From contig CP154954.1 of NCBI GenBank assembly GCA_039621445.1, positions 47,285,847-47,349,846 on the forward strand: 64,000 nt of DNA, read 5' to 3'. The number at the start of each line of letters is the position of its first letter. Positions within the stretch are counted from its first letter, which is position 1. Under the pieces are notes generated by a model. The model was given only the letters and a program-made list of their open reading frames with translations, was not told the DNA's origin and did no database searches. This document shows, piece after piece, positions 1-24,952 of the stretch. The DNA comes from Euglena gracilis. Lineage: Eukaryota. The translations under genes and the position numbers were made by a program.

Positions 1-29
1 CTGAAGCTATCACAGCTTCTTGGTCAGAT
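1..29 (+). mobile_element. Family B gag fragment left of the element A insertion
   Basis: Exact reverse complement of 31156-31184 (LKLSQLLGQ). Continues at 16841. Confidence 0.9.
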
Positions 30-456
30 AGTGTACGTCCAAAGCTTTCCCTTTTCCCCTTTTTGGAACTTTCTGTAAAAGCCTTTCGCTTTCGCCTTGG
101 TGCGCAGCCTACTTATGGTAGGGAAAAGTCTTTGGAGTAACGAAAAGTGGTTTTCCCCTTTTCTTCCCAATTCCCCAAGAAGCAAAGCACAAAGCAAAGA
201 TTAAGAAGTTTCTTCTGAGATCAAAGTCGATTGTTCTGAGGGTTTTTCCCTCTGACAAAACCAATGGTGAAACTTGGAAGTGATGACAGTAAAGAATACC
301 AAGTGTGGGGGAAGGAGAGAAAAGTGCTGACGTGTACAGGGGCAGATCCCAGAAGGGTCTGCCACGATCTTACCAGCTGTGGGTTTCCACAGTGGTGCGA
401 CCGTCACAGAACTCACTCTGCAGATATCCTACAGAGCTGGGGCGTGCTGGTACACA
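30..456 (-). repeat. 3' LTR of element A
   Basis: Matches 16413-16840 with 6 substitutions and 1 indel by manual comparison. PPT is adjacent. Confidence 0.96.
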
Positions 457-466
457 TCCCCCTCCC
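457..466 (-). promoter_or_regulatory. Polypurine tract
   Basis: GGGAGGGGGA on the minus strand, abutting the 3' LTR. Confidence 0.85.
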
Positions 467-1344
467 AGGGCTACGCCCGATTTCTTTCATGGACCAGGGT
501 TTCCCAGTCCAGTCAGGATATCTGACGCCGCCCCAGGTGGGGTTCACTTCTCCATTCGGTGTCTCTCCTTTCCGCACAGTGGCATCCACCCAAAGCCCAA
601 AAACGCGCAAAAGGTTAGCCGCGTTTCGCGGTTACCTATTAGCCGTTTCGGCTTAGGTGGGGTATGAAAAAGCCCACTGTGGGAAACGGGGCTTGGCAGG
701 TTTCCTGACAAAGTGTCCCATCCACCCACTTTGGGTGTGCCAAAGGCATGCGGGGCTGGTCAAGCGATTCGCTGAAAACCCGAGGGGAGAGGTGTGGAAG
801 GGGGGGCAGGCTCTTATCCTGGTCATACCCGGATAAGGCTCCTAGGCGGTCATATCCGCACTAGGAAACAAAAGCCTACTTACAAAACCGACTGCCGGCG
901 ACAGCTTTGCGGGGGTGGGGGGAAAGTAGGGAGGAGAGGGGGGCTGGCTTAGGCCAGAACAGAATTTTTGCTGTCTGGCAGCCTTAAGGGCCTTAGGGCG
1001 GAAAAGTGACAAGTTGGCCTATTATTACGGCGTGCGCGCTGTGTGCTGTGCGTCACTTAGCGGTTTGCCAGGTTTCCCGGCTGCCAAGGTCTTCAAAGCA
1101 GTAGCTCCTTCACGACGCAATAAGAGGCGATTACCTCCCGCAGACGGTTTCCGTCCGCATGGTCACTGGTATAATGGGTTGACAGGGGGGGGGCTCTTGG
1201 ATGCTTCCATCCAGAGCGTTGAGGGACACAGACCCAGGTTCATCCCAGGGCTGTTTAGCGATTTCCGCTTCCAGTGTATATATATAGTGTATGAGCTCCA
1301 TGAAGGCGCTTACCTTACATGGGCTTGGTAATGCCGTTTCGGCA

Positions 1345-4300
1345 TTACATCCGCTCCAGCCGCCAATAGTCATGGCGGGAGTCCAAGGGATCTTCCACAA
1401 GGACCATCTGGAATTGTGGTGGCTGTGGCCTGTCGACGAGCCAGGTTTCTGGCGAGTCGTAGTCGAAATCAGGTGCGATCCAGTCCCGAACCCATCCTTC
1501 GGGTACTGTCTGCTTGGTGGCACTCGCTCTTTTCGCGAGAAACCACTGCAGCTTCTCCCAGAATTTCCTGGGCAAAGTCGCTGGCCAGATGAAGTAGTTT
1601 CTCCGAGGGTGATTGGCTGACACCTGCGGGGCATTCCCCGGGTGGAAGTCGATGGGAACGTGATAGGCGCATTCCGCCCGGACTGTATGGGGTCGCAATA
1701 CGGCCCCTAGCCAGTCCTTCCAGGTCATCCCGTGTTTTTCGGGTGGCCATTGTGGTAGGCACCAGCGACCGTTTCGGTCCTGGGTTGTGAATAGGCGGAA
1801 AAGTTTCTTTTCCCTGTCCGCTGTCTCCCAGAGGTAAGGTAATCTTACCCCTGCTTCCTCAGCAGCGAGGCGTATCGCCCCACTGTCGATCTGCCACCCA
1901 CGGGCCATTCCCGTGTGGCGGTAGTCGTCGAGCTTGAGGTTGGCATATTTGAAGAAGTCCTTGAACTTTTTGTTCAAGGAGGAGTATTCCTCCAGTGGCT
2001 TCTCGGCACTCGGCACGATTGTGCGAACTGCGCCTTCCGCAGTGTGCCAGAAGGTACCTCGCAGGCAATTGACGCAGAGTACTGGTACATTCGTACCATC
2101 TCGTTCCGTGTAGCAAAAATTGTGCTTGTGGGTCCAACTGTCCACGCACTTGGCGCATACCAAGGCGGCACAGTTGGGTATGTACATATCCTTGTGGAAC
2201 GATTTTCGCTCCACAGGGTTGCACACATGGACGAGGGGTAATCCCAAGTCAGGAGCACTGTTGTACATCCTGTGGCAAACAGTGCAGAGCCACACAAATC
2301 GGTTTTCCGATGTTCTGTCGACGAGGAATTCCTCGCCGAAGTATTGGGCCAAAACACGTGGTGATCTGGAATTGTAATAATTCCAGGTGACATTCTGGTC
2401 AAAGGACCATTTCCGTCCTTGACAGAACAGTGGTTCAATCCACCGATTGAGGCATTGGTCTGTTCGCAGCTTGTGTTCGATCATCATGTACCTGTTTTTC
2501 AGGTCATGAGTCTCAGGATCATCCTGAGTCATCGCATTGCAGTCGATGACAACTTCGCCTTCCGAAGGTGTCGTAATCGTAGAGGCGCGGGATTTTCCCT
2601 GCCCCTTCGTAGGTGGTTTCGGCTGTGAAGTTTTCCCATAGCCGGATGATGTGACCTGTGTGAATCCTCCTCCCGAGGCTAATCCTCGAGAAGAAGATGC
2701 ACCCTGGCCACCAGCACCACCACCGAGTTTCGGTGGGGGCTGATCACCTGTCTTAGGTGAGGGTTTGCAAGGCGCGGCACCAGGCTTTGATTTGGCCGGG
2801 GCCTTCGGACTTCCGCTTTCCGGAGCATCCGAGGGTCGCCGTTCGGCGTCACGCTTGCTTGACCAGGTGCGTGGTGACGGCTGGGCCGGGGGTCTTTTCC
2901 CCGACACCGAGCGTCGTTGACCTTCAGCAGGGGTTTCCCGAGCTGAGGGTCGCCCTACGCGTTCTTTTGCTGCGCTCGTGGGTTTCCCAGGAGCAGCCGT
3001 GGAGGATGGTGTGGGTGTGGGCGTCGCCGCTGCACTTCGCGTTGGCGGAGTCTGTGGTGGGGGCATGGATGTCCGTGCAGCCTGTTTTTCAGGTGCCGGT
3101 GTCCGTGTGCCCGCACGCTTCGGTGCAGTGACCGCTGTGTGTGGAGGTACGGGCTCATCCCGTGCCTCTGATCCCGCTACCGGTGCTAATGTAGGTTCAT
3201 CCTGCACTGGCACGGGTAGCGTTGTCACCACTGACATTGCCGTTGGTTCGCCCTCCGTCCGTGTCGTTTCCGACACCGGCGGTGGCGCGGCCATTGGGGA
3301 AGGTTCATCCTCCTCCATGGCTGCAGCTTCAGTTGTTTCGTCCGCTGGCTGGGCCGTTTCTGCCACAGCAGTGGAAGAACTGGCCGCAGTGCCACGTGGG
3401 GTGACAACGGCGATCAGTGATCGCAAACCGCCGAGTACACGTCCGCCCAGTGAGGGGCGCCGTTCAGGTCCTTCCCCTGAAGTGGGCTCCTCCACTGGCT
3501 CCTCTGTCGTCGGGATTTCCCCGGGGACAGGAAGCTTGAGGCGTAATACCTCAGGCGTAGGGGTTACCGTCTCCGGCGGGTTTTTCCGCGGAGGGGTCGG
3601 TCCACCTGGCGTACCCAGTGAGGATGGTGACAGTGGGATAGGCGTCATTTCACCTGTCGGTGATCCCGGGCGCTGGGCGGTTTCCGCCACAGTGTCCAGC
3701 ATCACAACCGACGGGCTACGGGTTTCCCGTGCCGGGGGTTCCGCAGGCTGAGGTTCATCCTCGGCCATTGGGACCGCTTCTCCTGTCTCCTCCGCTTCCG
3801 GAGGGGACTCCTCTGTGTGTAGTTGGGTTGCAGAACGCGGGTCTTCCCTGCTTCTGTAGCACCCTTGAGCATTTGACAGGCGGAAAAAGCTAATACGTTC
3901 ACTCCTGTCAGAGTTGGGGTATGGAGGTGGCCACGACGCTCGCACCCAGCTTCCGGGTGGAGGTTGAGGCTCATCCTCGTTGATCAGGCAGAGGTCTTCC
4001 CACTGCGATCGACGGGTCTCACCCATACCATACTCTCCCGTTTCTTCCAGGAAAGCTGGCAGTGGTACTGCGTAGCGAGGTTGGCTTAGCTCGCGGGGAG
4101 CGAAGAACACTTCGAACTCCTGCCAGTCCAGGATTTCCCCGAACTGGGTCTGCAGGTGTTCCCGGAGGCCGATTTCTGCCCCCGTCCAGTCCGGCCGCAG
4201 GTTTATCCTGCGTCGGTCTGGATCATACGGTCTGGCATCTACCTCGGTGTATCCCCGAGGTATCCACTTCCTGTGGATATCCACATCGGTGGTCATCTGT

Positions 4301-6788
4301 TCCAGGAAATATATATATACTTCCAGGACGTAGGTAATCCACGCCCTGTGCCAGTATTGTTGGAGCAGAAATATTTTCTGCCGGTGCTGTTTCAGCACCT
4401 TCCGGTCTTGCGTTCCGATCTGGGGTTTCCGGCACTGATGCAGGAGGAATCTCCTGGTCGGTGGGCTGCCGGCATTCTCGGCAGTCGGAGGCGGTTTTCC
4501 GCGCTCCCCGAAACCCCAGAAGTCAACAATGTGGACTTCCTTGCAAAACTGGCATTCCAGTTTGTATCGTTGAGGGTAGGCGAGGTCCACGTCCAGTACC
4601 TTGAACAGCATGCCGTACATGCTGTCCAAGAATACTTGGAGGTTGTTTGTGAACATTACCGCAGCCTGCGCCTGGAGTTTCTCCGGCAGGGGGTAATATT
4701 TCCACTGGATTCCCAGTGCGCTGACGGAATACATGTGGTTGAAGATTTCCTTCAACTGTGCTACGAACGTTTCATCGTCTTCACATGTGTTCAAACAATC
4801 GATGTATGTCAGACCGTTTCGGTCGGTGAAAATGCCAAAGTTCTGGCAGGGATATCCCAACCAGAACCAGAGTTCCCAGAAACCAGACATCTGGTCCAGG
4901 ACCATTTCATCCGAATGAGGGTATCCCTCAAACGCATGAAGTTCGGTACTGTAGATGAATCGTTTGCAGTGATCGTGCATACGATCCTGCACCAGTGCGA
5001 GCACCGCTTCCGGTGGTCGGTGGATCACGTTGCCAGCACGCGTGTACTTTTGGAGATCCTGGTCGATTTTCGGCCAGATTTCATCCAAGTAATCGAACAG
5101 CTGGTCAGCGTCGTAATCCTTCGTTTTCGAAGGTTCGGCGGCTTTTCCGCCTTTTCCTGCTGGGGGTCCGGCAGATTTTCCGCCTTTGCCTGGGGGTGGT
5201 CCAGCGGGTTTTCCGCCTTTTCCAGATGAGGCTTTCCCACCTTTCTCCTGGCCTTTACCTTTACCCTTACCCTTGCCTTTTCCTTTACCCTTGCCCTTCG
5301 TGTTGGACAGCCATTCTATTGTCGCCCGATATGGGTCCCAATATTCCCAGTATTCTGGGTCTTCTTCTGTATACACAGGATAAGTTACGGATTCCGTGCT
5401 TGGTGTTCGAGCAAATTCCTGCTCAGCATCACCACGATTCGAGTAAACCGGTGCGACTGGGGATGGTCGGGTTTCCCGACGTGCCCGTTCTGCCGTCACG
5501 TCGGGCGCTGGCGGAGCTTCCTCCTCAGCGTCGACGTGCATCGCCGCGGGCGGATTTTCCGACCTCGGCGAGCGGCGTTGTGGCTGCGGCGTCAGATTTT
5601 CCAGGCCGCGGTCACGTTTGCCGGCGGCAGAGCTTGTGGGTCGTGCTGGTGGCGCTTCCGCCACAGCCACGTCCCGCTGTCGCGCTGGTTGACTTAACCG
5701 TGATGGAGCTGGGACTCCTGTGAGAGCCGACACAGCAGCATCATACTGCTGGCGTTCTTCCCGTGTCATTTCCGCCCGGGCAGGGTATCCCTGGCCAGCG
5801 GAAACAGGGGGGCGACGTGCGATTTGTCGTTGGATCGTCACAGCATATTCATACTGTTGACGGTCCTCCTCAGTCTCGAACGGCCGACCAGTCCACGGGT
5901 TAACGGGTTCATCCCGTGCCGGGGGAACTGGTGCCGCACGAGGCGCTGCCGCGGCTTCCCGCGGACGAGCGCTTCGGGCAGAGTCAGACGTCGGGGGAGG
6001 ATTTCCCGCCGCAGGACGTCGTGGGATAGGGTCAGGTATAGTGGGGTGGGTGGATATGGATATATGTACTGATCCTGTGGCCTTGGCGCCTCCTGTGGGT
6101 ATTCCCCAGAGACGGTGTACTGAGACACATGCTCCTGCGCAGGATAATCCCGCCGGGGCGTGCGCTCAGGGGATCGAAAAATACTTTCTTTCACACGTGG
6201 GTGTTCACTCCGGACAGGTGCTTCCACTGTCTCTTCCTCGGGTAATCCGGGGGAGTGAGCACGAAAATGTGCAGTGTAAGTGCCAACGGGTGGTACCTGC
6301 CTTGCGACCTGTGGCGGGACTTCCACGCCCAGGTCACGCATGGTAATGTCTGCCGCGAATCCCGACGCGTCCGGGTCGGTGTAATACACCAGACCGGTCA
6401 TCGTCGCCTGGGCGCACATACACCACAGGGCTGGAGGGGTATTCGCGATGGTCAAAACTTTACGGCAGTGGTCATCCCACAATGCCTGTGTGAGTTGGTC
6501 TGGTGCCGGGTTTGCGCTCATACGCATAACCCGGTTCATCGTCTCCGCCGTGCGGTGGATCATCACACCCGCATACGGTGGGAGGCGACGAGAGCCTGAT
6601 GGCTGAGATGGCCGCGCTTCCGCGGGCATCTGGGTCATCCTGCTACTGCTGCTGGCTTCAGGGTTTCCCTGAGCCGCAGTCCGTGCAGGTGGCTGCGTAC
6701 CGTATCGGTATGCATACTGGTCAGGTTGAGGGTGAGTGGTGGGGTGGTAAGGCGGTCCTCCGCCTGAATCCCTTCCACCGGGCAGCAT
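1345..6788 (-). CDS. Extra ORF3 of element A, unknown function (~1,800 codons, one frameshift within about 5840-6070)
   Basis: ORFs 5838-6842 and 1345-5841 are both homologous to the single B ORF 23345-24952 and its downstream fragments. Both families start MLPG and share three conserved blocks separated by Pro/Glu-rich linkers. Confidence 0.85.
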
Positions 6789-6951
6789 GATACAGCCCGG
6801 GGTCGGTACGGTGGGATGTTTGGGTTGTTGGTTTGTTGTCAAGTGAAAGGGTAACTCCCTGGTGTTATTTGGTAAAAAGTCTGCGGAAAGAAAGAATGAT
6901 AAGAATCAATGATAAAAAGAAGAGAAAACAACATGGGTTTCCCATGCGTTC

Positions 6952-9900
6952 TCAAAAACTTGTCATGGAAACATCAATGTTATGTTTCTTGTTCCACAGC
7001 TTCCAATCTTGCTGGACATACCCAACAAAACTGGTTGCTGGCTCCCAAGTGTCCTCCTCGGGCCCATACCCTTTCCAGCGGACCTTCCAAAGGTGCATAC
7101 CTTTGTCGATTTTGTGATCGATAATTTTATCGACTACAAAGTCGTCCGTCTCAGGTAATCTGGAACGGGGTTTGAAGTGCAAACACGGGATGGGTTTCCC
7201 ATCCGGTGGCGACAGGTATGGTTTGAAGTCGTCCATATGAACGTCCTCAACACCATTCGGTAATGCAACCTTGTAACGCCCGCTGGTACCTAGTCTTTCT
7301 AGGATTTCACAGGGGCCGAGCCAGAGGGGGTCCAGCTTGGAAGACTGCATGCGAGTACGGCTATTCCGTACCCACACGCGGTCACCGGGACTGTAAACAG
7401 GTGACTTGAAATTCTGCAAAAACGATTTCCGTTTTGCTGCATGAATATCAGTCACGCGTTTCTGGACTGCAGAACGTAGATTTTCTACTTCCGCAAACCA
7501 GGTCTCGCAACTGACACTCGTTCGGGCGGGTCTCTCCGAAGGGACATCCCCTATGGCCGGAGGGTCCCGTCCGAAAACTAATTTATAGGGGGAGTGAGGT
7601 AAAACCAACCCTGGTAGGGTATTGATATAAAACAAAGACCATGGTAGAACTGATATCCAGTTGCTGCGCGAGTCAGCCAGTGAAAGGCGAAGCATATTCA
7701 CGACGGATTTCACGGCTGCCTCGGCTCTACCATTGCCTTTGGGTCGGTATATAATGGAAAAATGTTGCTCGATTCCGAGTAAACCGCACAAAGTGGTGAA
7801 AAACCTTGAAGAAATCAAATGGTCTTGATCACTCACGATTTCATTCGGTAAACCCATCAAGCAAATGCATTTCTCCAAAAATATAGTTGCCAAACTTTGG
7901 GCAGTCAACCCTGACTTCTGGCATGGAATGGCTACAATGTACCCACTCAGCCTGCAGACGACAACAAAAACGTAATCGTAAATTTTGTCGTCTGTTCCTT
8001 TGCACGGTTACAATTCCAAAAAATCCATGCAGAGGGATGTAAAAATGTCAGGGGGTACGGGGAAAAAGTCCATCGTACCAGGGGGGGTACCTCTGCGGGG
8101 TTTTACCGCTTGACAAATTTGACACCGTTGCGCTATTCGCAAACAGCGTGAGTAAAGCTCTTTCTCGCTCAGGGTTGTACAGTACCTGCGGCCCACCAAC
8201 GAAAGAAGTTTGGGGGCCCCAGGGTGACCATGGTTGTGATAACACAAAATCACATCATCAACCAGGTCCTGGGGGATACAATATTTGTAACCCGATTCAT
8301 TGCGAAAAACCAACCGTAAAGGTGAAAGAGTGTAATTGTCCAGCACTTCGCCATTACGAAGTCTGGTGACAATGGTGTCATACACCGGGTCACGACTATA
8401 ATCCCATTCGCGAAAGAACAGTGGGGAAGGGGACTCCGTGCGCGTAATACGCCGGGGCCCGGACGTGCTTCCACGTCGGCGCCTTCCTCGCACTGGTGCG
8501 ACCAGGAATAGTTGTGAAACGGGAAAAGAATCCAAAAGATTGTCCGCAGCGTCGGTTCGACGTGCGTATCCTGTGCGTATTCCTGACTTCCATGAAAAGT
8601 CGCGTCTCCCTCATCCGGGTTCCCAGGGTAATACCAAGGGGCCCGACTGAGCGGATCCGCTACTTTTTGTGTGTGTCCAGGGGTATAAATAACCACAAGG
8701 TTGAATTGACTCAAGAACTCATGCCATCTGCATCGCCTTCCGACCGATGACATGGCCTTGTTCAAATCCTCGGTGTACCAGTGTTGCAGACTCTCATGGT
8801 CGGTCTTGACGAGGATCTGGACGAGGGTGCTGGCTACCCAGCTTCGGAATTTCTGGAGTATAAGCACGATTGCGTAGGTTTCCTTCTCGCGTATACTCCA
8901 TTTGACTTGACCTTTTCCATCGTCGCCCTGTAACTTTCTGCTGAAGAAAGCCACAGGTCGGAGCTCATTCGCCGCATTATGCTGGCTAAGAACTCCGCCA
9001 ACAGCGTAATCGCTGCTGTCGACTTCCAACACGTATGGTTTGTACGGGTCCGCGATTTCGAGGACAACATTCTCCAAAAGCAAAGCCTTGATTTTCTCAA
9101 GGGCCTCGCGCATTTGGTCATCCCAAATGACTTTGGTGTTGTCAACAGCCCGGTTTTTGAGCTGTTTGGTGAGGGGCACCGCGATTTTCGCGAAGTCCTT
9201 CATATAAATCGCGTAGTATTGGGCTAATCCCAAAAATCCTTTGACGTGAGTAATCGTTTTGATTTCCTCAGGGGTCCATTTCTTAATAGCTTCGAGTTTA
9301 CTCGGAGCGGCTTTCCGCTGTCCATTGCTGAGGATGTGCCCGCAAAATTTTATACGTATCCGAAAAAAATTCATGTTCGCGCCTTTGGAGAAAGTCACAT
9401 GTTTTTGAAAAGCGGTTAATACCGCGCAAAAATGGTGGAAGTGTGTGACGAGGATATCCTGGCTCGATTTTGCGGACGGTGGTGGTGTTCCCACCAGCAC
9501 ATCATCAATGTACCCAATGGCAAACGGTAAATCGCGTTAAACCCATTGGATCATGCGTTGAAACATGGCTGGGCCATTCTCAACACCCACGGGGAGTACC
9601 GTCCATTGGTACACACCCTTGGATGTCACGAATGCCGTGTATGGTTGGGAGTCAGGGTGTAAGTGCATTTGGTGTGAAAACCGTCCTCCAGATCGAAAAT
9701 TGACCACACACGGTTTTCCGATTGTTTGGTGATCAAATCCTCGATCAGGGGGAGCGGAAAGGGATCATCCCTTGTTTGGGAGTTCAGGTACCGGTAATCC
9801 AGCACCAGCCTCCATTTCTTCTGACCTGAGGGGTCTGGGGGTTTAGGAACAAAACAAAATGCCTGGGATGTCCACTCGCTTTTCGAGGGACAAACCACTT

Positions 9901-12038
9901 GCGCTGAATAAGCTTCTCAATCATGTCATTGAGAGCTTGTTCGCGTTCTCCCGAACAACGATAAAATTTCCGTTGCATTGGTTGGGCGCCTTCCTGAAGC
10001 TGGATCTGACAAACACCAAACGGACCGCGTTTATTTTTTACCGGGGGTGGGGGGTGTCAGATAAGCCGAAATTGTCGTGCACACGGAGGTATACTGGATT
10101 TTCAAGCACAACGTGAAATCCGCGGGCATAACGCGAACAGAATTCGGCTGACTTAGGATGACCTGACTCTCGATGACTGCGGAAACACCAGGGTATATCT
10201 GGGGCTACCAAACTTCCTCAGCACCGCGAATTCGGACATTCCGAATGCATCGAAGAAACATACGCGAAAAATGATTTCTTGCACGGGTGGTAATATTTTA
10301 CCACAAAAATCCTCAAAAAATCGGTACATTAGTGGGTAAATCCCACCAATGAAAACACACATACGATAGTTGGGTGAACCATTCCGCTTCCGGAATGATG
10401 GGTATGAGAATAACTCCACGGGCTTCATCCCGCAGATTTTTCTCAACCGCACATTCGATAAGTTTTGGGGGAGGGTGCATCCATAACACCGTATCACCCC
10501 AAAATTTATCAAATGCGTTGGAGTGTTGTGACCAATGACGTGGCAAACGGGCATGTGCATTGGATGAGAAGGCATCGATTTCCAATGCCAAATCAAAAGA
10601 ATCAGCCAATGTCGCGATTTTGGAAAACCATCGTTCCAAAATGCGATATTGACCAAAATTGAAAGCATTCCATATGCGTTTCGCGTATTCATGCACCCGA
10701 TTTTCGGGTTGAAGGGTAGAAACACAATGAATGGATCCACAAACATGCGGGTTGTCTTCCACTACCACAAGGGTTAATCCCAAGGGAGTTTAGACAGGTT
10801 GGGGGTTTCCCCATTCCGCATCAAATCCGTACCAAGTGTGATCGCGATTGTAATTAGGAATGGCGCTTTTCGCGTTTCCAAACAACGAGGCTAATCCTCG
10901 TTGTTGGAGTACTCGGTGTATCTCCGCGCATTGCGGGCTACAACCAAGTGTATCATGGGGGGTGGATTCCGTTTTCGGAATTGCGATTAGTGTCGGATTT
11001 TGAACTAAACATCCACAATCGAAATCCGATTGGGTGGAAATTCTCCTGCAGTGCACACATTGGAAGGAAGTGTGATGGTGTGACGGGTGTGCGTGAAAGT
11101 GGGTGTCGATGGCATTAGCCGGGGAGTCTTGTACAGGTGTGCCTGGATTCGGCACAGCTGGTGGGAAACGGAGTGGTGGTGTGGCTGTGGCTCGACACCG
11201 TGATCACTGCAGGCCTTTGGGCTTTCGTCTTGTAACCCAGTGGAACGGCGGGGGTACCGCTACTCGCTTGCCCTGCCTCATGTGGAACGCATGTTGGTGT
11301 GTCATTGGGCAGGGGGGAGGCTTTCTCCGTACCCCGGGTGTGGAAAACGGTTGTTGGTGTGGTGGGTAACGGTGTTGCCATTGTGGGTAACGGTGTGGGC
11401 AAAGCGGTGGTCATCATAGTGGATGACAACGGTGATGGTGGTTTGGGTGTCAATGAAGTGGTGAGTGCTGTGCGCAAACCGTGGGAGTGGCAATCCACAA
11501 CCAATCGGTACTGGCGTAAAAATGGGTATCCCAAAATTACGTCAGACCCGTGAATTCCGGACTCGTAACCCCAAATATTGGTGAAATGTTGTAATTGTGG
11601 GGGTTGTGAGTGATGCTTCGGAATGATGGGCAAGAGTATCTCGAGCACACATCCCAAATCACCACCACACATGGGGGTGTTATCCGCGGTTGTAATTTTG
11701 ATCGGTTTCTTGGCGCTTACCAAGAGCGGGGTCGGTATCAACCCCAACCGAAAGAGCAGTGCAATGCGACAACCAGTGTCAATGAGAATTTTGACTTTGG
11801 TGGAGAAATTTTGAATGCGGATTTCCGCTTGGACGAGTAATTCCATTGGTGGTACGCAAAGTGAAGGGTCTGGCGGAAATACGTTTGCATGCCAGCTCTC
11901 CCATGAACCCTTTCCTACTTTGCTCAGCATTCCGAGCGGAAATGTGGAGTGGGGGGTAGGGGACCCGAAATAATTCCGGGTACTGACCGTGAAGGCGGAT
12001 GGGCAGGGGGGGTAAGGTTGATCAGGTCTTACCTCCAT
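6952..12038 (-). pseudogene. pol: Pol of element A (PR, Dam-like MTase, RT, RNase H, integrase, chromodomain), frameshifted
   Basis: Fragments: ILIDTG protease (11115-12038), IDAFSS...WMHPPP (10313-10783), RT KWRLVLDYRYLN, RH VLEVDSSDYAVGGVL, HHCC plus D-D-E integrase, and chromodomain WKVRWKGYGPEEDTWEP. Colinear with the near-intact B pol. Confidence 0.92.
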
Positions 12039-12083
12039 CTGTTCATCAGCCCAGAGGTCCGTGCCCTCGGACCTCGGGCTCCC

Positions 12084-15000
12084 CTACTCCAAGTCCGAAC
12101 CGGCCGCATAGCCGGCAACGGACTTTTGGTGGAATAGATGGAATTCAATGAGCGCACCGCCATTCGGGCCTCATTAAATTCCCCGTCCGAGGTCTCATCC
12201 CCCTCCCTGCCCGAAGCCGGGGTGTCCTCCTCCAAACAAGATATCTTGAAACCGACCTTTTGCCGGTTGGAGGAGTAACCACGGTCATCGCGGCGCTTAC
12301 CGCGATTTCCGTAGCCGGGCCGGGGGGAACGAGATCTGGGACATTTGGATGCGTGGTGATCTTTGGAACCGCAAAGTGAACAACGGGATTTGTGGCGGGA
12401 TTCCGCATAACGGGGGGAACGGTATTCCGTTTTTCCGTCAAACCGTCGTGGTGAACGGGTTTCCCGTCGACCATGACCGGTGTATCGGGACTTCCCCGTT
12501 GACTCGCGTGAAGAGGATGATCCACTTCGCGAACGAGATCGTGAAGAATCGCGATTGAAATCCCGTTTTCGTGCAGGAGGGCCAGGTGACCGACCGCGAG
12601 AAGGACGGGTTTCCCGACCATCACGCGATGGTGACTTGGGCCTACTACCGCTAAAGCGGTTCTCCGAAGACCGTGAAACTCCCGATTGACGTGAAAACGC
12701 CGAGGAACCCGATCCCCGTGAGGAGGTCGAGCCCCTTGGGCTTCCAATACGCTTTCGCGCATCGGGATTCGGGCATTCCCGAGACATGTGACCAGATTTG
12801 TTGCAAAAAAAGCACAGTTTATCCGTGCCCTGGTCCGAAGAACGCTGATTCCGCGTTTTCGGTCCCGTGGTGGGTGATCTTGGTGACATGGGTGATTTTT
12901 GCAACGCATTAACCGCACCCGCAGGGATTCCCGCGGTGGGATGCGTTTGGAAAGCGGACTGTATTTGTCCCAAAACTTGTGTGAGCTTGAGTTGCTTTGA
13001 CACATAATTCCAACGTTGGGCAAGAGTCATCTCATGCCCTGCCAACTCCTCGCGATGGATATCCTTCACGAGGGATGGTGTGAAATGCAACAAAACCGCA
13101 TCGAATTGTTCGCGCATTTGCTTCTCGCTAAGTTCATCAACTTCGGAAGCAAGTGCTAACCATTTGGCATACCAAAGGTCAATGGATTTCCATTTGCGAT
13201 CCGATGGCGCGCGTTGTCGCCACTTCTTCTCCAGGGTAATCCTGGTGACCAGACTTGAATTGGTTGAAGCGTATTGCTCAACCAGGTCATCGAATGATAC
13301 GCCATTACGTATCACCAAATTGCGTGCGCGTTCTCGCTCCTCCCTCGGTAGGCAATCGATGAATTCCATCTTGACTACCTCGGGATTCGGGTCTTGGGTG
13401 GGTCCCTTTAGTGCCCAATAGTACTCCCAGTCCCGAAAAAATTGTCTCCATGTGGTTGGATCCCCGTCCCATTGAGGCTTCACCTTGTTCGCGATTGCGA
13501 TGGTGCCCTTGAAGTCTCTCTGAGTAACCCGCTGACCCTCGGTGGTATTCCAGGGGTTTGGGTCAGGGTAATTCTTAACACCAAACGCGTTTCGCGGATT
13601 TTCCGCTCCATGTGTAACCCGTGCAGGATTTCCCGCACCAAGTGTAAGGTTGGCAGGATTTTCCTGCGGGAATTGCGAAAAATGTGGTGAAATCCTCTCA
13701 GTGGGGCGGGTTTCCCGCCGAAAACCCGATGGGTGGTCTGGCATTCCAGAACCCGTCGGTTGTTGGTATGATCGCGATTGCGACACATGACCAATACCAG
13801 GTGTGGGGTGTTGGCTCATTCCTCGCACAAGGTTGGAATGTTGAATTTCTTGGTGGAGACTCGAATTTTCGAGTGGGGGGTCAATTTCCTCATCGGAAAT
13901 GTCGTGCGAAGAGTGAGTTTGTGGTGTTGGCAAATGCAAAGGTGGTACAATTCGCGTTTTCGCGGGTGGTTGTACCAAATTCGCGGTGGATGTAGGGATT
14001 CCTACTCCGGAAAAGGTAATTTGAGAACGCGATTCCGGGACATTTGGAATACCAACCGCAGCGCTTACCGCGGTAGGTGGTGGCACAACCGGTACCGGAG
14101 GGTACATTTTATCCAAACTCGCGGACAAGTCATGCACCGTTTCTTCCAAATGTTCCACCAACTGGAGTTGGCCGCAAATACGGTCAACCTCAGTCTCCAA
14201 ATGCCTAATGCGTTTGCGGTAACGGGAAAAATCTTCCAAGTGTGGCAACTTTTCAGAAACCAAGTGTAATTCTTGGGCAAGATTTCCTTGGGACTCCTCC
14301 ACATTCCGGAGTTGACCCGCAAGCGCTTTTACCGCATTTGAGACGGTTTGCAATTGGTGGAGTGACTTGGTGGGGGTTTCCACGGTGGTGCGCGAATTTT
14401 CCGCGGTTGGTTTTTCCAACAACGCAGAAATTCGTCCATCCAACCGAGAAACCTCATCTTGCATGGATCGGGCATTCCGATTCACGCTTTCCTCAATTTG
14501 GAGCAAACTTGTACAAAATGCTTGCAAGGTTTCCTTGTTGTCACCAAGCACTTTGTCATAAAATGAGCGAAATTCCGGTGACTCGGATATCCGAGCACGC
14601 GAAATGGGGGGTAGTGAGCGGATTTCCGTCACTGTGGTGGACAACAAGGTGCAACGGGTTTGTAATTCCCCAATAGCGGCTTGAATACCACTAATGTCGG
14701 GAATTCGCTTGGAAAGTGCAGAAACATGCTCCTGCAAACCGACAACGGTGGCATTAATACCGCCAATGTCCGTTTGCATTTGTTGTTGCGTAAAATCCAA
14801 CCGTTGTGCGCAATCCGCGATTTTCGCGTTCAAGGTGGTTAATCCATCCTGATTTGCGGCACAATGGCAGGATTTTTGCTCCAAGTGTGAAATTCGTTCC
14901 TCCAAAAGCTGGATTTGCGTACGGGGAACAAAATTTTCTTGCACTTTCGCCTGAAATTGCTTCAAGTGCTCGATTTCCGAGCCAAGATGCAAAATCCGTT

Positions 15001-15976
15001 GTTGGGCTTCTTGGAAAGAAGTGGTAAGTGCGGCAAAATGCTCAACCGCGACAAAGTTACCGATTTCCGGCATTTTGGGGGTGGCATTTTGCGCTTGTAA
15101 CTGCTGCTGCAATTGCAGTAGCATGGTTGAACAGGATTCCAATTGGGCAAAAAGATGGCTCATACCATCCTGCACATGCAGAAACTTGGAATCATTCCGC
15201 GTTTCCGCTTCATGCAGCATTTCGCTGATTTGTTGGAAATTTTGTGGAAGTTGGATGCGCAAAATACTGTCAACACTTTCTCGAAAATGCTGAAGGTCTT
15301 TCCCCGCATTTTCAAAATTGTGTTGGCAATATTTGCCGATTTCCTGCAAATAATTCCAGCAACATTCCAGTTTGGTGTTGACAACCCTTTGATTGTCCTC
15401 ATCAAACTGCAAAACTTTGTTGAGCATGGTTGCGCATTCCGCAACGCATTGGTGGACATGCAAAATTTGCTTGCTAAGCGGGTGATCCGCTGGGAGTTGA
15501 CCGAGAATTCGGTAAACATCACCGGGGGTGAGGTTATCCCTCAAATCTTCCTCATAGTCCTCCACAATGGAAACGGCACCAGACACTTCCGCCCACCTCA
15601 GCCCCATCTCTGGGTTCCATGGCAATGCAGGGAAAACCGCAGCTTCCGCGGGTAATCCCGGCAAAGCGTGAAATGGTGTGGGGGGTGGTAATTGAGGGGG
15701 GGGTTGGAAAAAACACGGTGTTTCCACCGAGTTGCACTCCAAAAGGCCCACCGGTGCTTCCACCGGGGATCTTTTGGGTGTGAACAGAGCAAAGGGCAAA
15801 TACCCCTCACTTTGTTCATGGGTAACATGAGTAACCAAGTGTGAGGGTGCAAGGGGTTCATCCCCTCGCCGCATCAATGATGGGTGAATCGGGATGGAGG
15901 AAGGCATTTTGCCACCTACATCCCGCACAATCAATGACAATGATGATGAAGAGGGTTCATTACCCCCATGCAACAT
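12084..15976 (-). CDS. gag: Gag-like polyprotein of element A (~1,300 aa)
   Basis: Long coiled-coil-like N-terminal region, capsid-like PQWDGDPTTWRQFFRDWEYY, two CCHC knuckles (CFFCNKSGHMSREC, CSLCGSKDHHASKC) and an RS-rich region. A 1-nt deletion just before the conserved TAG (12084-12086) shifts the ORF-track end to 12029. Confidence 0.9.
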
Positions 15977-16402
15977 AAAGGCGTTTCGCCTTTTGACAAT
16001 GACAAATGAGTCAAATTGCCTTCTTCTTGCTTGGGGGGTCGGGAATTGGAACTTGTTTCATTCAAACCGTTCCAATCCCCGCAATCTTCATCACAATTGC
16101 TCAATGAACTCATCAACAAGTCATAATCAAATTTGGGGTTGGGGCTTGTGCTCTGCATCTTTTGAGATGGGTAAAAAGGCAAAAACCCAAAAATTCACAC
16201 AAATAAGCAGAGAAACAGGGACCAGAAAGGTTGTATCGGCGATTACCGAACAGAGCCTTCTGAGACCTGTATCCTTGCTTAAAGGTTGGCTAGGGGCCAG
16301 GAACAGTACTTTCACCGTGTTTCACGGCTCAGTACGATCCTCACCACCAGTCAACCACAGAGTTTCTCTGTGTGGAACGTCTGTGTAGGATCGTTGCCTA
16401 AA

Positions 16403-16412
16403 TCTGCTACCA
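16403..16412 (-). promoter_or_regulatory. Primer-binding site, initiator tRNA-Met type
   Basis: TGGTAGCAGA immediately 3' of the 5' LTR, complementary to the ...UCUGCUACCA 3' end of many eukaryotic initiator tRNAs. Confidence 0.8.
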
Positions 16413-16840
16413 AGTGTACGTCCAAAGCTTTCCCTTTTCCCCTTTTTGGAACTTTCTGTAAAAGCCTTTCGCTTTCGCCTTGGTGCGCAGCCTACTTATG
16501 GTAGGGAAAAGTCTTTGGAGTAACGAAAAGTGGTTTTCCCCTTTTCTTCCCAATTCCCCAAGAAGCAAAGCACAAAGCAAAGATTCAGAAGTTTCTTCTG
16601 AGATCAAAGTCGATTGTTCTGAGGGTTTTTCCCTCTGACAAAACCAATGGTGAAACTTGGAAGTGATGACAGTAAAGAATACCACCTGTGGGGGAAGGAG
16701 AGAAAAGTGCTGACGTGTCCAGGGGCAGATCCCAGAAGGGTCTGCCACGATCTTACCAGCTGTGGGTTTCCACAGTGGTGCGACCGTCACAGAACCCACT
16801 CTGCACATATCCTACAGAGCTGGGGCGTGCCTGGTACACA
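16413..16840 (-). repeat. 5' LTR of element A
   Basis: Begins TGTGTAC on the minus strand and ends GTACACT. Directly followed by the PBS. Confidence 0.96.
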
Positions 16841-17722
16841 CAGATTCAATCCGCGTATACCGCACACCCAACCGCTGGATTACCGGCTGGTTCGGTGAAC
16901 GCATTGCAAAAATCACCGGTTTCACCCGCTTCACCCACCACGGGATCGAAAACGCGATACCCGCGTTCTTCGGACCAAGCCACGGATAAAGTGTGCTTTT
17001 TGTGCAACAAATCCGGACATATGTCTCGGGAATGTCCTAATCCTGAAGCGCGTAAGCGTATTCAGAGTCCGCGAGGCTCGACGTCATCACGTGGTTCGGG
17101 TTCCTCCGCGTTTTCACGCCAATCGGGCAATTCAAGGTCGTCGGGTCCCCGTTCCGGTGGTATTAGCCCCCGGATCCCGTTCCGCGATGAGCGGAAACAC
17201 GGTACCCCTCGGGGTAGGTCACCCGGTGCCCCGGCCAAGAAGCGTGATTCTCATCGCGAGGCATCGCGATCGCGTTCGCGAAGCGGATCATCCTCTTCGC
17301 GATCCTCATCGGGAAAACCCCGATACACCGGTCATGGTCGACGGGATACCCGGTCACCACGACGGTTTGACGGGAAATCGGGAAACCGATCCCCCCATTA
17401 TCCAGATTCGCGACACAAATCTCGGTGTTCGCTTTGTGGATCGAGTGATCACCACTCATCCAAATGTCCGCGTTCTCGTTCTCCCCGCCCTGGCCAACGT
17501 CATCGCGGTATGAATCGCGGTGACAAGGGTCACTCCTCCAACCGCCATAAAGTCGGTTTCAAGATATCTTGTTTGGAGGATGACACCCCGGCTTCGGGCA
17601 GGGAGGGGGATGAGACCACGGATACCGATTTCGACGAGGCCCGCATGGCGGTGCGCACGTTGAAATCCGTTTACACCTCTAAAAGGCCCATAGCCGGCTA
17701 TTCGGCCGGTTCGGACCTGGAG

Positions 17723-18265: not shown

Positions 18266-18273
18266 TTTTTTTT

Positions 18274-18321
<48 letters not shown>

Positions 18322-18325
18322 TTTT

Positions 18326-19458: not shown

Positions 19459-22400
19459 TTACCTGCCTTTATCGGCAGGACGTTCGCGGACCTCACGCCA
19501 GTAGTCGTGTTGGGGGTCCCCTAATGGGTCCTCAACCAACTCCAGTTGGCGTGGGGAACGCGGCGGAGCTGATTCACTCCGGATGGTGTTGAGCTCCGGA
19601 TCGTTGACATCAAAGGAAGGGGTCTCCCAGTCCTTGATCCAATTATCCGGCAGCTTCTCCCTGGTACGTTCAGCATGATGCTGAAGATACCGTCGGAGCT
19701 GCTCCCAGAAAATTCTGGGCAGCATCACCGGCCAGATGATGTAATTCATCCGGGGGTGATTCGCAGGCACCTGCGGGGGCATCCCCGGGGTCTGCTTGAA
19801 GTTGATGTCATACATCCACCTCGCTGTCCGAGCTCTTGCGGTATGGGGCCGTAATACAGCCGCCAACCAACCTCTGAAGTCCACCAAATCGTGTTCTTCA
19901 GGAGGCCACAGTGGTAAGGCGTATCCGCCATGTTGACGCTTGGAGAACAGGGGGTAAACCTGTGTCTCCCAGTCGCAATCAGTCCAGAGGTAAGGCATTC
20001 TTACCTTGGCATGTTCCTCAACGGCGAGGCGCATTGCCCCAGCGTCCATCTGGAACTCACGGGCCATTCCCGTGTGGCGGTAGCTTTCTACCTTTTTGAA
20101 GTCGGAGTGCTTCAGGCGTCCTTCCACCTGCTTGTACTCCTTCTTCCACTTCTCCAGTGTCTCCCAGTGCTGGGGGACAATGGTGGTGACTGCTCCATCA
20201 GCAGTCTGCACGAACGTGCCTCCTATACAGTTGATGCACAAGGCTGGGATATCCCTGTCGTGAGCATTCTCACTGTAGGAGTAGTTCAAGCTGTGCTTCC
20301 AGGCGTTCAGGCACTCGCCACATACGAGCGCCACACAGTTCGGCACATATGCCCTGTGATGGAACCACGAGGATTGCACCTGCCGCTTGCACACATGCAC
20401 AAGCGGTTGGTTATGCCGCACATGGTGGCATACGGTGCACGTCCAGGCAAAGGACGTGCCGTGCTGGAAATACAACACGCAGTCCTCGCCAAAGTACTGT
20501 GCCAGTACTCTGGGTGAGCGCCTGTTCCAGAATGTCCAGGTATGTTCCGGGGCATAGTGGAAAGGTTCTCCTCGGACGAAGAGGGGCTGAATCCATCGAT
20601 TCAGTGACCCTGTCTGGTGCCTAATAGCTGCCAGTTTCTTCGTCCTCTCTTCCACGGTGCCTAGTCTGGTCAGGATATCCTGGGTCCAGAGCTGGGCATC
20701 CGCAGACACAGGAGGTGAAGCAGGTTCATCCTGCTCCTCATCCGTCGATCCGGCGGAAGATTGGGCCTGTCGACCACGAGCCTTACCTTTCGGTTTGCTC
20801 TGGCCGTACCCGGACGATGCAACGGCCGAATAGTCGTGCATTGTCGTAGGGCCTTTCGGCTGTCCGCCAGTCTGACCTCCAGCGCCACCTTTCGGTGGTG
20901 GTTTCCCATCACCGCCTTTGGAAGGGGGCTTACAGGGTGCAGCACCCGGTTTGCCTCCTTTCGGCTTCGCACTCCCGGAATCAAGAGACGACGCCTGCGG
21001 CTTACTCCTGGTATCAGGAGCCGATGGTGCCGGAGAAGACGTTTGCCGTCTGGGCGAAGCGGGCATACTGACCGCTGGGTCGCGCATGACGCTCCGAGGG
21101 GTCGGCACTCGTTCCTGGGGTTGTTCAGCAGGCCGTCGCCGAGCAGGTTCATCCTGTCCGACGAGGCGTGGCACTGTGGTCGTCACCGGAATCGGTGCTT
21201 CCACAGGCGCTGGCACTCCCAGAAACTCTGCCATTGTCCTCGGGACGGCAGGGACCCTGCGCGGTGTCGGTGGTCGTGGGGGTATCTCCTCCATTTCCAT
21301 TTCGACATCCGGTCTAGGAAGTTGATCCTCCACAACCGCTGACGCAGGTGCTACGGGAGGTTGATCCTCCGGTGTAGCCGGTGCGACAGATGTCTCTGTT
21401 GGCTGGGGTTCATCCCCTGATGGTGGTTGCACTGCTGCCGGAGACGGGGGTGTGGGGACACCGACATCTGGTGTCTCCACGACCTCAGCGGCGGAGCTTG
21501 ACGCTACGCCTCCACCTCGTGGCGTTAGTGCAGCAGCCACGGCAGTAATGCCAGTGACCACGGCGCCGAGCACACGGCCTCCTAACGAGGTGCGTGCTGT
21601 GGGAGTGGCAGGTTCTTCGAGGATATCCTCGACGACCATACCAGTCACCTCGGCTGGAGGCTCAGCCGTTGGAACAGGCGTAGCATCCACAGGTATATCC
21701 CCTGCGGGTGCTGTGTCTGGCCTAGGCTGTGCCGGAGCATGCAGAGCAGCGTAGAGGATATCCTCCACGTTCTCACCTTCCTCCTCAGGAAGTTCCTGGT
21801 CTCCACCTACCGGTGGACAGACGTGAGCCGTCGCGGGGGCCGGGGAAACCGATCGTTCCCCTGCCGCTCGCGGGGCAGAGACGAATGATACAGCCGTTCC
21901 TGTCGGAGACGGCGGCGCTGCCTCCAGTATGGTGACGGAGGGGCTGCGGTCGCGTTCCTCCCGCCGCGGAATCGCAGTGGTGGAAGCGACTGACGCCTCA
22001 CGTCTCCTTCGCGCCAGAGGTTCATCCTCTGGGGCGATGAAGGCGCGCAGATCCTCGGGCGAACGAGGGTCGTCGGGGTGCCGCCAGCCTGTAAAAGGCC
22101 AGCGTACTGCTACTGGCGCTGTTGGGCCAGGGTGGCGGCCATGATGGCTGCACCCAGGCGATGGCAGGCCTGTTCGGGCCCAGGAAGCCGCGGTAACGCG
22201 TGTCCTCCCAGACCTCGAAAAAGCCCTCCTCGAACTCCTGAACGCATGCCAGAATCGGCATACGCTGGTCGAGGATGGCCTTCGGGTGAGACATCAGCGG
22301 AAGGAATACCTCCTGGTCGAGGGTACCGCCAAACTGTCGCCGCAAATGTTCCTCCAGGCTGATATCAGCCAGGTGCCAGTTGGGGCGCAGGTGGCCGAGA

Positions 22401-24952
22401 ATCCGACGACGAGGACCCTCGATGGCGTCACCGTATTCTGGTGGCAGGCTTTCCATACCAGGCATATCGTCCTGGGGGTCACGGAGATGTATATACACCT
22501 CCATGACATAGGTGGTCCAGGCTCGCCACCAGAACTGCTGCAGCATAAAAATACGCTGCTTGTGGACGCGGCGACTTTTGCCCTGGACATCCGGGGCGTC
22601 GCGGCACACATGCATAAGCATGCGGCGTCCCATCTCCAGGCCCGGGTTATCCCGAGGCGGTGGAGGACTTCCGCGCACGCCGAATCCCCAGAAGTCGACA
22701 GGAAATTCCTGCCGGCAGTACTTACAGCAGAGGTCATACCTCTGCGGGTAAGCCAGGGAAACACGCCTAACGCGGAAGGTGGAGCCGTAATGGCTCACCA
22801 GCCATTACGGCCTGAAGGTTGTTGCACCACAACACCTCGATTAGGCGTTCGATGTCGGGGTGTAGTGGGTAGAATTCCCACTGTACGCCGAGGGGTCCGA
22901 CTGTATGAATACAGTCGAAGATTGCCTTCAGCCTTCGGGCCAACACATGCTGGTCCCGAAATCCTAACTGGTGCAGGTAACTGCGGCCAGTGGAGTCGCT
23001 GAAGAGAGCCCAGCTCTGGCTGGGGTATCTCAGCCAAACCCAGAGTTCCCAGCACACCCGCTGGTCATCAAGCAAGGGTCTGCCCCCCTCACCTTCGAAG
23101 GCGTACAGGTCCATTCCGTACTGGAATTGTCTGACTCTGGTCTCGGTGTGGTGGAATACAACCTCGATGACTGCGTCCGGAGGGGTGACGGTGCGGTTTC
23201 CTCAAACATGGTAATCATGATGCATTCGCCCGCATTCGTCATCTAGCTCCTGCTTGAACATGAGCAATTTGCTCAAAGTCCGAGAGGACTTCTGCTGGTT
23301 CTTCCTCCTCCTCACGGGCTGTACCCTTACCCTTGCCCTCACCCTTACACGGCCTTTGCCTTCTCCCTTGCCTTTGCCCTCAGCCTTACCTTTGTCCTTC
23401 CCTGTCTGCGCGAATTACCAGAGGGTCGGGCGCTCGGTGCGGCAGGATTCGTTCGGTACCTTCCCTTCCATCTCTGGGGAGGGGACCTTGTCGTTCGCTG
23501 CACGTGGCGGGGACGGCGTGGCTGGGCGCTGGCTAGGAAGCATGGCTGGGCTTGGTTTCGGGCGTAGGGGGGGTCGCGGTCATTCCATACCGGAGGGATC
23601 GGCGGTGGCATTGCGGCAACAGGACGGCTCATCGCTGCCTGTGCCACTGCCGGTGGTTGCCCAGCCGGGGTATCCGGGCTGGCTTCCACCTGCATTGCCG
23701 CACCGCCTTCCGCGTCCCGTGGGCTGGGTCGCCTGGGCTGTGGGGTAAGGTTCTCCGTAACCCTATCGCGCTTCAGGGTGGCAGGTAATCCTGCCGCTCC
23801 TGCCGGGGGCTCACCGGGTAATACCGGGGTCGCCACCCGCAGCTGCGGTTGGTACGGATGGTAGGGGGTGTATCCACGACCCTGAAGGGCAGCCAGAGAG
23901 GCGTAATACCTCGTCCGGTGCTCTTCAGACACGAATACTGGCTCCTGCAGGAAGTGCTGAGCAAGCTCATCCTGCTCGGTTCCCGGAGGTGCCATATGAT
24001 AGTAGGGAGTCTCCTGCCGACGGGGGACATCCCCAGTCTGGACAGGGGCTGCACTCGGTGGTCGGGCTGCCTCCCGGTGGGGAGGCTCATCCTCCACCAC
24101 TATGGGCTCCGCCTGCCTCCGTGGCTCAACGCCAGGGAAAGGAGCGACCGGTGATGCTTGTGGCATCCAGTGCATGAACATGTGTTGGACGTAGGCCTCA
24201 GAGGGCACGTCCGACTGTCCGGCTGGGAGCACGCGTGCGCCGCGCGGGTAATCCGCGTGCGTCGCGTACCGCGAGACAAATTGCTCCGCTGGCGGCTCGC
24301 GCGGCGGCATTCGCTGCGGCGAGGGCGGGCGAGCAAAAATTCTCGTCATCCCAGGTGGGACATGCACAGCCTCACCTACCGGTGGGGGCGTGTGCTCACG
24401 CATATGCACGGTGTGGGATCCCACCGGCGTCTGCGTTTGCAGCATGGGCGGCACATACACGCCCAGGTCCATCATGGTCTCGCCGGGTTCGAAGCCGGAA
24501 TCGGCTGCGGACGAGAAATACCGTCTCCCTGTCATCAGGGCCTGACCACAAGGACACCACTGAGCCACAGGGGTGTTGGCTACCACCAACAACTGAGCAC
24601 AGTATGCATCCCAAAGGGCTTGCATAAAGGGCTCCGTTGGGGGGTGTGCGCACATACGCATCGCCCGCTCCAACGTCTCCGTAGTGCGGAAGATCATCTC
24701 TCCCGCATACGGGGGCAGGCGCGATCTGCGCTGCGCTGGTGGCTGAGGTGCCGGCTGCTGGACGGCAGATGGATCTGGTACCGCATATGCGGACCGGCTG
24801 CTGGTAGCCGCGGCGAATACCGGGGCTGAAACCCTCTCAGCATGTGGGGCACCCGGAATCGGGGCTTCAGCATACTGAGGGTACTGGGGGTATGGCGCGC
24901 CAGAAGGCTGCGGCCATGGTGGACCTGGTCCAGGTCCGCGCCCAGGTAGCAT
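19459..24952 (-). pseudogene. Extra ORF3 of family B, frameshifted
   Basis: Fragments 23345-24952, 22767-23114, 22022-22798 and 19459-21768 align in order with element A ORF3 (RLPPYAG, WELWxWLxYP, LAYPQRY, RSPRVLAQYFGE, YRHTGMAR, ANHPR). Confidence 0.85.

Follow-up and report, generated by a model that had tools for sequence, protein, structure and literature searches.

The first 32 kb of a 64,000-nucleotide stretch of the Euglena gracilis genome (assembly GCA_039621445.1, contig CP154954.1, positions 47,285,847 to 47,349,846 of the forward strand; hereafter the window) are filled by two related long terminal repeat (LTR) retrotransposons, A and B, both on the minus strand. In each of them pol is followed by a third coding region on the same strand as gag and pol, which we call ORF3 (open reading frame 3). 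It is an additional sense ORF between pol and the 3′ LTR, lying in element A between the integrase/chromodomain end of pol and the LTR. The coordinates of the features are collected in Table 1.

Results

ORF3 is a long sense coding region in both elements, broken in each

A reading made from the DNA letters without database searches (the sequence-only reading) had described a huge sense-strand ORF after pol in A and B. A sense coding region of that size is indeed present, with ~1,814 codons in A and ~1,830 codons in B, but in neither element is it one open frame. The ORF3 ATG follows the pol stop codon after ~165 nt in A and ~195 nt in B. In A a single frame change is needed, in a run of C within a Pro-rich stretch. 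The B copy consists of five open pieces (25036-23348, 23414-23205, 23201-22770, 22804-22025 and 22293-19462), and reading through it takes three frame changes, one of them within a Lys-Gly repeat, and passage over an in-frame stop codon at 23202-23204. Given that B is open where A is shifted, we conclude that the ancestral state was one ORF of ~1,815-1,830 codons. A programmed -1 frameshift in A was judged unlikely, since B is open across the equivalent region.

Both ORF3 copies in the window are defective and can be regarded as dead. The rest of the window yielded no other sequence resembling ORF3. Among the best 12 of 67 indels listed between copy A and the contigs of public sequencing runs, none lies in ORF3. 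Public DNA contigs span all ORF3 bins, with a summed word depth of 0.35-0.88 million versus ~0.65-1.6 million over pol, a depth that is not a copy number. Long open frames also run antisense within ORF3 (2921-3751, 4090-5229 and 22145-23002, all on the plus strand), and most likely arise as a side effect of its GC-rich codons.

Coding constraint between and within families

The ORF3 proteins of A and B are collinear from end to end by blastp, with 42% identity over 252 aa in the N-terminal block, 29% in the first linker, 35% and 42% in segments of the middle block, and 36.6% over another 910 aa. The three motif-bearing blocks (N-terminal, middle and C-terminal) that the sequence-only reading had singled out are present in both elements as it described them. 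Amino-acid identity between A and B is 36-48% in the conserved ORF3 blocks versus 86% in integrase. At the DNA level, only pieces of 84-124 bp can be aligned in ORF3 and its 3′ flank, versus 82-83% identity over 3 kb in pol; the earlier statement that DNA divergence is much higher here than in pol is thus borne out. What does not hold is the description of A and B as two divergent gypsy families. With an integrase 86% identical at the protein level (0.08 non-synonymous and 0.87 synonymous substitutions per site, dN and dS), they are rather close relatives.

Proportions of non-synonymous (pN) and synonymous (pS) differences were counted by the Nei-Gojobori method. The conserved blocks have pN values of 0.34-0.41 and pS values of 0.67-0.75, and the four of them together (949 codons) give a pS of 0.70, a pN of 0.37 and a pN/pS of 0.53. 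The same aligned bases read in the shifted frames give pN/pS ratios of 1.08 and 1.26. As pS is near saturation, we give no numeric dN/dS.

Within family A, the best-supported 20 ORF3 substitutions between copy A and the public-run contigs comprise 12 synonymous and 8 non-synonymous changes, this being a selected sample of the >1,100 rows listed for the 16.9-kb stretch of element A. The expected synonymous share is 0.24 if all changes are allowed and 0.33 for transitions only (binomial p = 0.0007 and 0.012). Coding constraint both within and between families therefore supports the view that ORF3 has been kept by selection as a protein. The earlier proposal of a selected accessory protein is upheld by the synonymous excess in the ORF3 frame only, by the excess of synonymous changes within the family, and by the motifs that relatives have kept (see below).

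A probable history partly apart from pol

At four-fold degenerate sites of residues identical in A and B, 149 of 217 differ (0.69) in the ORF3 blocks versus 108 of 251 (0.43) in pol (Fisher p = 3e-8). The GC content of third codon positions (GC3) is 0.60-0.70 in the ordered ORF3 blocks versus 0.52-0.58 in pol, while the CpG observed/expected ratio is only slightly lower. Near-saturated silent sites together with higher GC3 point to an ORF3 history that is partly separate from that of pol. We favour the explanation that A and B diverged earlier in their ORF3 modules than in their pol genes, which may have come about by inter-lineage recombination or old capture; silent sites that mutate faster in ORF3 than in pol would be a less favoured alternative.

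Relatives and transcription

An exhaustive HMMER search with 1,200 residues of the A ORF3 against 1.84 billion protein representatives gave 23 matches at E≤1e-3, every one a fragment (39-470 aa). Twenty of these were traced, 2 to Euglena gracilis transcript proteins (EukProt), 7 to Logan assemblies and 11 to ENA/JGI metagenome contigs of 1-3.7 kb. EG_transcript_25142 (P0001) is identical to the B ORF3 at 226 of 230 positions (98%), a near-identity from which we conclude that B-type ORF3 is transcribed and which is in keeping with DNA of E. gracilis or of a very close relative. EG_transcript_43227 (P0012) is only 38% identical to the B ORF3, and hence represents a third E. gracilis lineage. Contigs of one RNA library and of two presumed RNA runs also lie on ORF3; these were not counted as evidence of expression, because neither transcription nor RNA ends or splicing can be read from contigs, and the material may include DNA.

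The metagenome fragments are 23-38% identical to A and keep its motifs, namely CTxCH, HxC, NCxAxxCxxC, CxNC, PGxPPQxxANHPxxNxxIWP and a VEDP tail in the C block, and YPQxY, CxxC, DFWG and HxC in the middle block. Several of the longer ones have a Pro/Ala-rich stretch ahead of the C block and end after it, which is the architecture of A and B. By these comparisons the ORF3 family is real and transcribed, and its distant, motif-keeping relatives indicate that it is old and wider than one species. Metagenome scans for contigs encoding relatives, one with an alignment and one with P0023, found nothing, and neither did a scan of viral contigs. A word-index search with the C-block region found no match among proteins of 883-2811 aa, and a C-block profile found only P0023 among proteins of near length and none among longer ones (756-2155 aa); all of these outcomes are weak evidence.

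Three Cys/His-bearing blocks on long linkers

The ORF3 protein has three ordered blocks of ~230, 390 and 370 residues, separated by linkers of ~300 and 470 residues that are rich in Pro, Glu, Ala, Thr, Ser, Gly and Lys and are probably disordered. The C block has the Cys/His pattern C-x2-C-H, H-x-C, C-x4-C-x2-C, C-x2-C and the middle block has C-x2-C and H-x-C; both patterns are kept in distant relatives. These are zinc-type motifs, and zinc binding by them is putative. Neither the middle nor the C block is a duplicate of the other (hhalign probability 0.1).

The sequence-only reading had seen no signal peptide or transmembrane segment and had concluded that this is not a typical Env, and we agree. 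The N-terminus is Pro/Gly-rich and has no signal peptide. No 19-residue window in the ~1,800 residues exceeds a Kyte-Doolittle value of 1.6 (maximum 1.60), on what is a simple scale rather than a dedicated predictor.

AlphaFold2 modelling of the C block from 14 sequences gave a mean predicted local distance difference test score (pLDDT) of 64.6, with ~80 over the Cys/His part, and predicts short strands followed by a helix that begins at a CxxC. The middle block, modelled from 8 sequences, reached a mean pLDDT of 47.5.

Comparison with known families and folds

None of the ORF3 pieces matched a Pfam family at E≤0.01, envelope families included. At E≤1, a RING, PHD or other recurrent family was matched by 0 of 14 C-block and 0 of 8 middle-block sequences. 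Sequence searches of the PDB with the three blocks and two profiles gave nothing below E = 0.1. Foldseek comparison of the modelled blocks with the PDB and BFVD, a check that had been proposed at the outset, returned no fold match.

The RING-type leads that did emerge are all in the chance range: the RNF141 RING at E = 0.13, ESM Atlas neighbours at 0.78-0.85 (best scores of 0.81 and 0.85, to be taken as leads only) and baculovirus PE38/IE-2 by Foldseek at E = 0.2-0.9. The C block resembles RING and PHD fingers in having several conserved CxxC- and HxC-type pairs within ~75 residues. The RING consensus is C-x2-C-x(9-39)-C-x(1-3)-H-x(2-3)-C-x2-C-x(4-48)-C-x2-C, and a PHD finger has a C4HC3 pattern in which 4-5 residues separate ligands 4 and 5. 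The C block reads C-x2-C-x15-H-x-C-x16-C-x4-C-x2-C-x23-C-x2-C, in which the gap past the second pair is 16-21 residues instead of 2-3. Its putative ligands thus depart from the RING spacing, and they fit neither the spacing nor a profile of the PHD finger. Hence the earlier suggestion of RING/PHD-like zinc clusters is not supported, given the empty Pfam counts, the lack of a PDB or fold match and the deviating spacing.

A candidate splice acceptor upstream of ORF3

A pyrimidine tract ending in CGCAG lies 93 nt upstream of the ORF3 ATG in A, and in B a matching tract plus CGCAG runs to 25054, 102 nt short of the ATG. A pyrimidine tract followed by CAG resembles a 3′ splice site, and it is possible that it serves a subgenomic ORF3 mRNA. 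Genes in the env position are usually expressed from a subgenomic RNA made by splicing or trans-splicing.

The carrier elements

Element A is flanked by LTRs of 427 bp each, whose 3′ and 5′ copies are 98.4% identical, and a primer-binding site beginning with TGG can be read after the 5′ LTR. A joint from position 24 to 16841, with 5 letters fitting either side, occurs in 11 contigs of a public DNA run and represents the empty site of A. This joint places A inside an inverted, B-like gag-protease fragment (16841-19030). The fragment (plus strand, 16841-19030 together with 1-24) is 96.7-98.4% identical to positions 29085-31160 of B, and is broken up by a long T-rich simple repeat at 18266-18406. 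Element B abuts this fragment and lacks a 3′ LTR within the window, an arrangement that points to either a rearrangement or an assembly join.

The pol of B matches the Pfam families RVT_1 (1e-26), RT_RNaseH_2 (1e-23), Integrase_H2C2 (9e-7) and Chromo (2.4e-8); the match to the integrase core, rve (1.6e-7, 31.9 bits), falls just below its cut-off of 32.6, and an SH3-like domain was also found. With reverse transcriptase (RT), RNase H, the H2C2 and core parts of integrase, a chromodomain and LTRs, the carrier element is a Ty3/gypsy chromovirus. Between protease and RT lies a Dam-like stretch (PF05869; residues 354-434 of B pol, E = 2.4e-4, 21.2 bits, below the 28.1-bit cut-off), situated at 28550-28792 in B and with an equivalent at ~10313-10789 in A. 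A DNA methyltransferase (DNMT) domain was not found in the carrier elements.

The gag frame of A (13574-16057, minus strand) has an N-terminal extension of ~830 residues with weak coiled-coil-type matches (NPV_P10, Laminin_II) and without a counterpart elsewhere in the window, the region upstream of B gag included. In B the gag stop codon (30276-30278) and the protease ORF share a frame, so that protease may be reached by readthrough, whereas in A the gag and protease frames overlap instead (12029-12123). An extra T behind 12123 is carried by contigs of all four public runs and accounts for ~43% of the depth in the DNA run. Compared with many or most contigs of the family, copy A has small indels in pol and gag at 9672, 9853-9856, 9889, 10315 and 15974; the pol of A is split over several frames because of such indels.

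Table 1. Features of elements A and B, in positions of the window
Feature	Position	Strand	Basis or remark
Element A, complete Ty3/gypsy chromovirus-like LTR retrotransposon, 16.8 kb, containing ORF3	30..16840	-	LTR pair, termini and empty-site joint; pol domains by homology to B
Target-site duplication of A, ATCTG, 5 bp	25..29; second copy 16841-16845		Sequence read; 5 letters common to both sides of the joint
3′ LTR of A	30..456	-	5′ LTR at 16414-16840
Polypurine tract of A, abutting the 3′ LTR on its upstream side	457..466	-	Sequence read
ORF3 of A	1345..6788	-	ORF list and blastp; ATG 6788, stop 1345-1347; two frames (6905-5841, then 6165-1348)
C-terminal block: Cys/His cluster CxxCH..HxC..C-x4-CxxC..CxxC at 2065-2286, then PGxPPQxxANHPRxNxxIWP	1348..2451	-	48% identity to B; 12 database relatives aligned
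Short conserved, mildly hydrophobic patch SLGGRVLG... in second linker	3390..3453	-	Kyte-Doolittle maximum, which is reached in B
Middle block: WELWxW, YPQRY, CxxC, VDFWGFGxRG, HxC; Cys/His motif at 4432-4554	3874..5034	-	blastp; motif kept in metagenome relatives P0017 and P0020
(Lys-Gly)n repeat with a (Lys-Gly)8 run, in first linker	5250..5298	-	Translation; the equivalent repeat of B shifts frame
C-run at the frame change of copy A	6038..6050	-	Bracketed by ORF calls and blastp, sequence read; B open here
N-terminal block: RLPPYAG, QALWD and WCxC motifs	6087..6788	-	Identity to B by blastp as in text; pN 0.365, pS 0.667
Pyrimidine tract ending CGCAG, candidate 3′ splice acceptor	6881..6925	-	Sequence read
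Pol end of A: integrase C-terminus and chromodomain	6952..8007	-	Partly via B; stop 6952-6954
ORF3 of B	19459..24952	-	ORF list and blastp; ATG 24952, stop 19459-19461
Pol of B, open frame of 1,567 codons: weak Dam-like match, RT, RNase H, integrase, chromodomain	25148..29851	-	Pfam

Other features of the window

Outside the two elements, an open frame at 53289-54035 (plus strand) has a partial match to the Pfam family 'Lysine_decarbox' (LOG-like, E = 9e-12) and may be an exon of a host gene. At 59698-63999, also on the plus strand, there is a run of long open frames (695, 402, 208 and 202+ codons) without a Pfam match, the first two of which have no similarity to A or B; the run may be another unclassified element. 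Related short simple repeats, tandem or inverted, lie far apart at 35133-35250 and 55081-55360.

Discussion

We favour, and consider somewhat probable, the explanation that ORF3 is a selected accessory gene of the chromovirus-like retrotransposons of the Euglena gracilis type, and that its product is an intracellular, trans-acting scaffold or adaptor built of zinc modules rather than an envelope. In this scheme ORF3 would be translated from a subgenomic RNA, either cis-spliced or trans-spliced with a spliced leader, by way of the pyrimidine-tract/CAG site 93-102 nt upstream of its ATG. The protein would then act inside the cell and in trans as a multivalent scaffold or adaptor, whose zinc modules may bind components of the element or of the host and thereby help replication or escape from host control. 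The module itself would have had a history partly apart from gag and pol. Several small predicted zinc modules on flexible linkers, with no membrane anchor, are what suggests a multivalent intracellular role, and evolution faster than that of pol fits an interface with host factors.

Several of our observations weigh against this explanation. Both copies in the window are broken, and B has four lesions in ORF3 yet open gag and pol frames; a broken ORF3 beside an open gag-pol would fit an ORF3 that is dispensable in cis. No joint at the acceptor site is among the best 15 of the 229 joints listed, although contigs cannot show RNA ends, and the splice-acceptor idea is drawn from the DNA letters by themselves. 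The argument for constraint uses silent sites so close to saturation that dN/dS cannot be expressed as a number, and a protein alignment built in the ORF3 frame, which favours a low pN there. The environmental relatives are protein fragments, for which a retrotransposon setting is at most putative. Finally, no biochemical function can be read from the protein, given that it has no Pfam, PDB-sequence or fold match and that the structure models are only moderate for the C block and poor for the middle block.

The other explanations differ in what they make of the Cys/His blocks and of the position behind pol. If the C block were a RING- or PHD-type finger, ORF3 would be an E3 ligase or a chromatin reader that counters silencing. 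Eight to ten Cys/His residues are conserved in that block, four CxxC-/HxC-type pairs among them, and its model shows a strand followed by a helix that opens with a CxxC, the arrangement seen in treble-clef fingers; the weak RNF141, language-model and PE38/IE-2 leads point the same way. A factor of this kind would be useful in a genome whose DNA is heavily methylated at cytosine (5-methylcytosine, 5mC), as reported in the accessible part of bioRxiv 10.64898/2026.05.21.726589. Nevertheless, with a spacing that does not fit and without a profile or fold match, we regard the RING/PHD explanation as unlikely. A bolder view is that ORF3 is a euglenid-wide, retrotransposon-borne family with new zinc-binding folds, which moves between lineages as a module of its own. 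The element would use it as a weapon against the defences of the host genome; it could, for instance, be an adaptor by which a silencing factor is removed or blocked, in a genome that carries 5mC by default. We hold this to be rather doubtful; if it were true, ORF3 might be among the most abundant protein-coding sequences of the 2.4-Gb genome and would represent a new class of transposon accessory.

An alternative that leaves the host aside makes ORF3 a structural or nucleic-acid-binding part of the virus-like particle or pre-integration complex, such as a chaperone or tether. Basic Lys-Gly and Lys/Pro-rich stretches and several Cys/His knuckles, which are common among nucleic-acid binders, would suit such a part, as would its co-inheritance with gag and pol in high-copy families. 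We nonetheless think it improbable, since ORF3 has no similarity to gag, nucleocapsid or a nucleic-acid-binding family, diverges far faster than gag-pol, which is unusual for a core structural component, and is broken in B while gag-pol is open. The disrupted copies, together with a GC3 above that of gag-pol and a silent-site divergence deeper than that of pol, could instead be taken as signs of a transduced host gene that has no role in transposition. Such a passenger would, however, have to keep one position and one three-block architecture across two lineages plus the third E. gracilis lineage (P0012), and to remain under coding constraint within and between families; moreover, no longer or host-like form was met among the proteins of 883-2811 aa and 756-2155 aa (weak evidence), and we find this explanation very unlikely. 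As for an envelope-like gene for particle exit or entry, ORF3 does lie in the env position and may have an env-like spliced message, but a protein lacking a signal peptide, any sufficiently hydrophobic window and any Pfam envelope family, and having long Pro/Glu-rich linkers unlike the ectodomains of glycoproteins, is extremely unlikely to be one.

Extra genes of LTR retrotransposons are known, but to our knowledge almost none of them has an assigned function. The accessory adaptors of complex retroviruses (Vif/Vpx/Vpr-type) lie after pol, are made from spliced RNA, evolve fast and act in trans on host factors, with a size of ~100-200 aa; being small and unrelated in sequence, they offer ORF3 a working analogy only. 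Bdelloid rotifer LTR retrotransposons reportedly share captured extra ORFs among different retroelement lineages, which would parallel the separate histories of ORF3 and pol, although hosts and proteins differ. In plant LTR retrotransposons, according to the accessible part of PMC7264820, sense additional ORFs between pol and the 3′ LTR ('aORF-3S', env-like) have unknown roles, and the env-position ORF of barley Bagy2 is expressed by splicing. As far as that account goes, ORF3 is like the plant ORFs in place, orientation and lack of clear database similarity, and may share their spread through the family beyond a single copy. It is unlike them in having no transmembrane segment, in its three Cys/His blocks, in its euglenid host and in being, at ~1,815 codons, longer than its element's own pol (1,567 codons), and no sequence relation was found.

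The closest described carriers are the Euglena gracilis DAM-LTR or 'EpiLTR' retrotransposons, given in the available portion of bioRxiv 10.64898/2026.05.21.726589 as Ty3/gypsy elements with a chromodomain and an adenine methyltransferase. Elements A and B resemble that description in their Ty3/gypsy layout, chromodomain and Dam-like stretch between protease and RT (below the Pfam cut-off). In the main-text passages available, the terms 'ORF3', 'additional ORF' and 'zinc' occur 0 times each, and the supplementary figures may show a third ORF. No description of a third gene of euglenid LTR retrotransposons was met in the literature searched.

Taken together, ORF3 adds a new protein family to a category already known, the accessory ORFs of LTR retrotransposons, and is unusual in its size, conservation and abundance. 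It is longer than pol, shows signs of coding constraint, is transcribed in E. gracilis, has environmental relatives, and belongs to families deeply covered by public DNA runs. Unmasked copies of it would inflate the counts of 'orphan genes' in euglenid gene sets. ORF3 is a source of possibly new zinc-binding folds, and a concrete candidate for studying what lets transposons thrive in a genome as large and as heavily methylated as that of Euglena.

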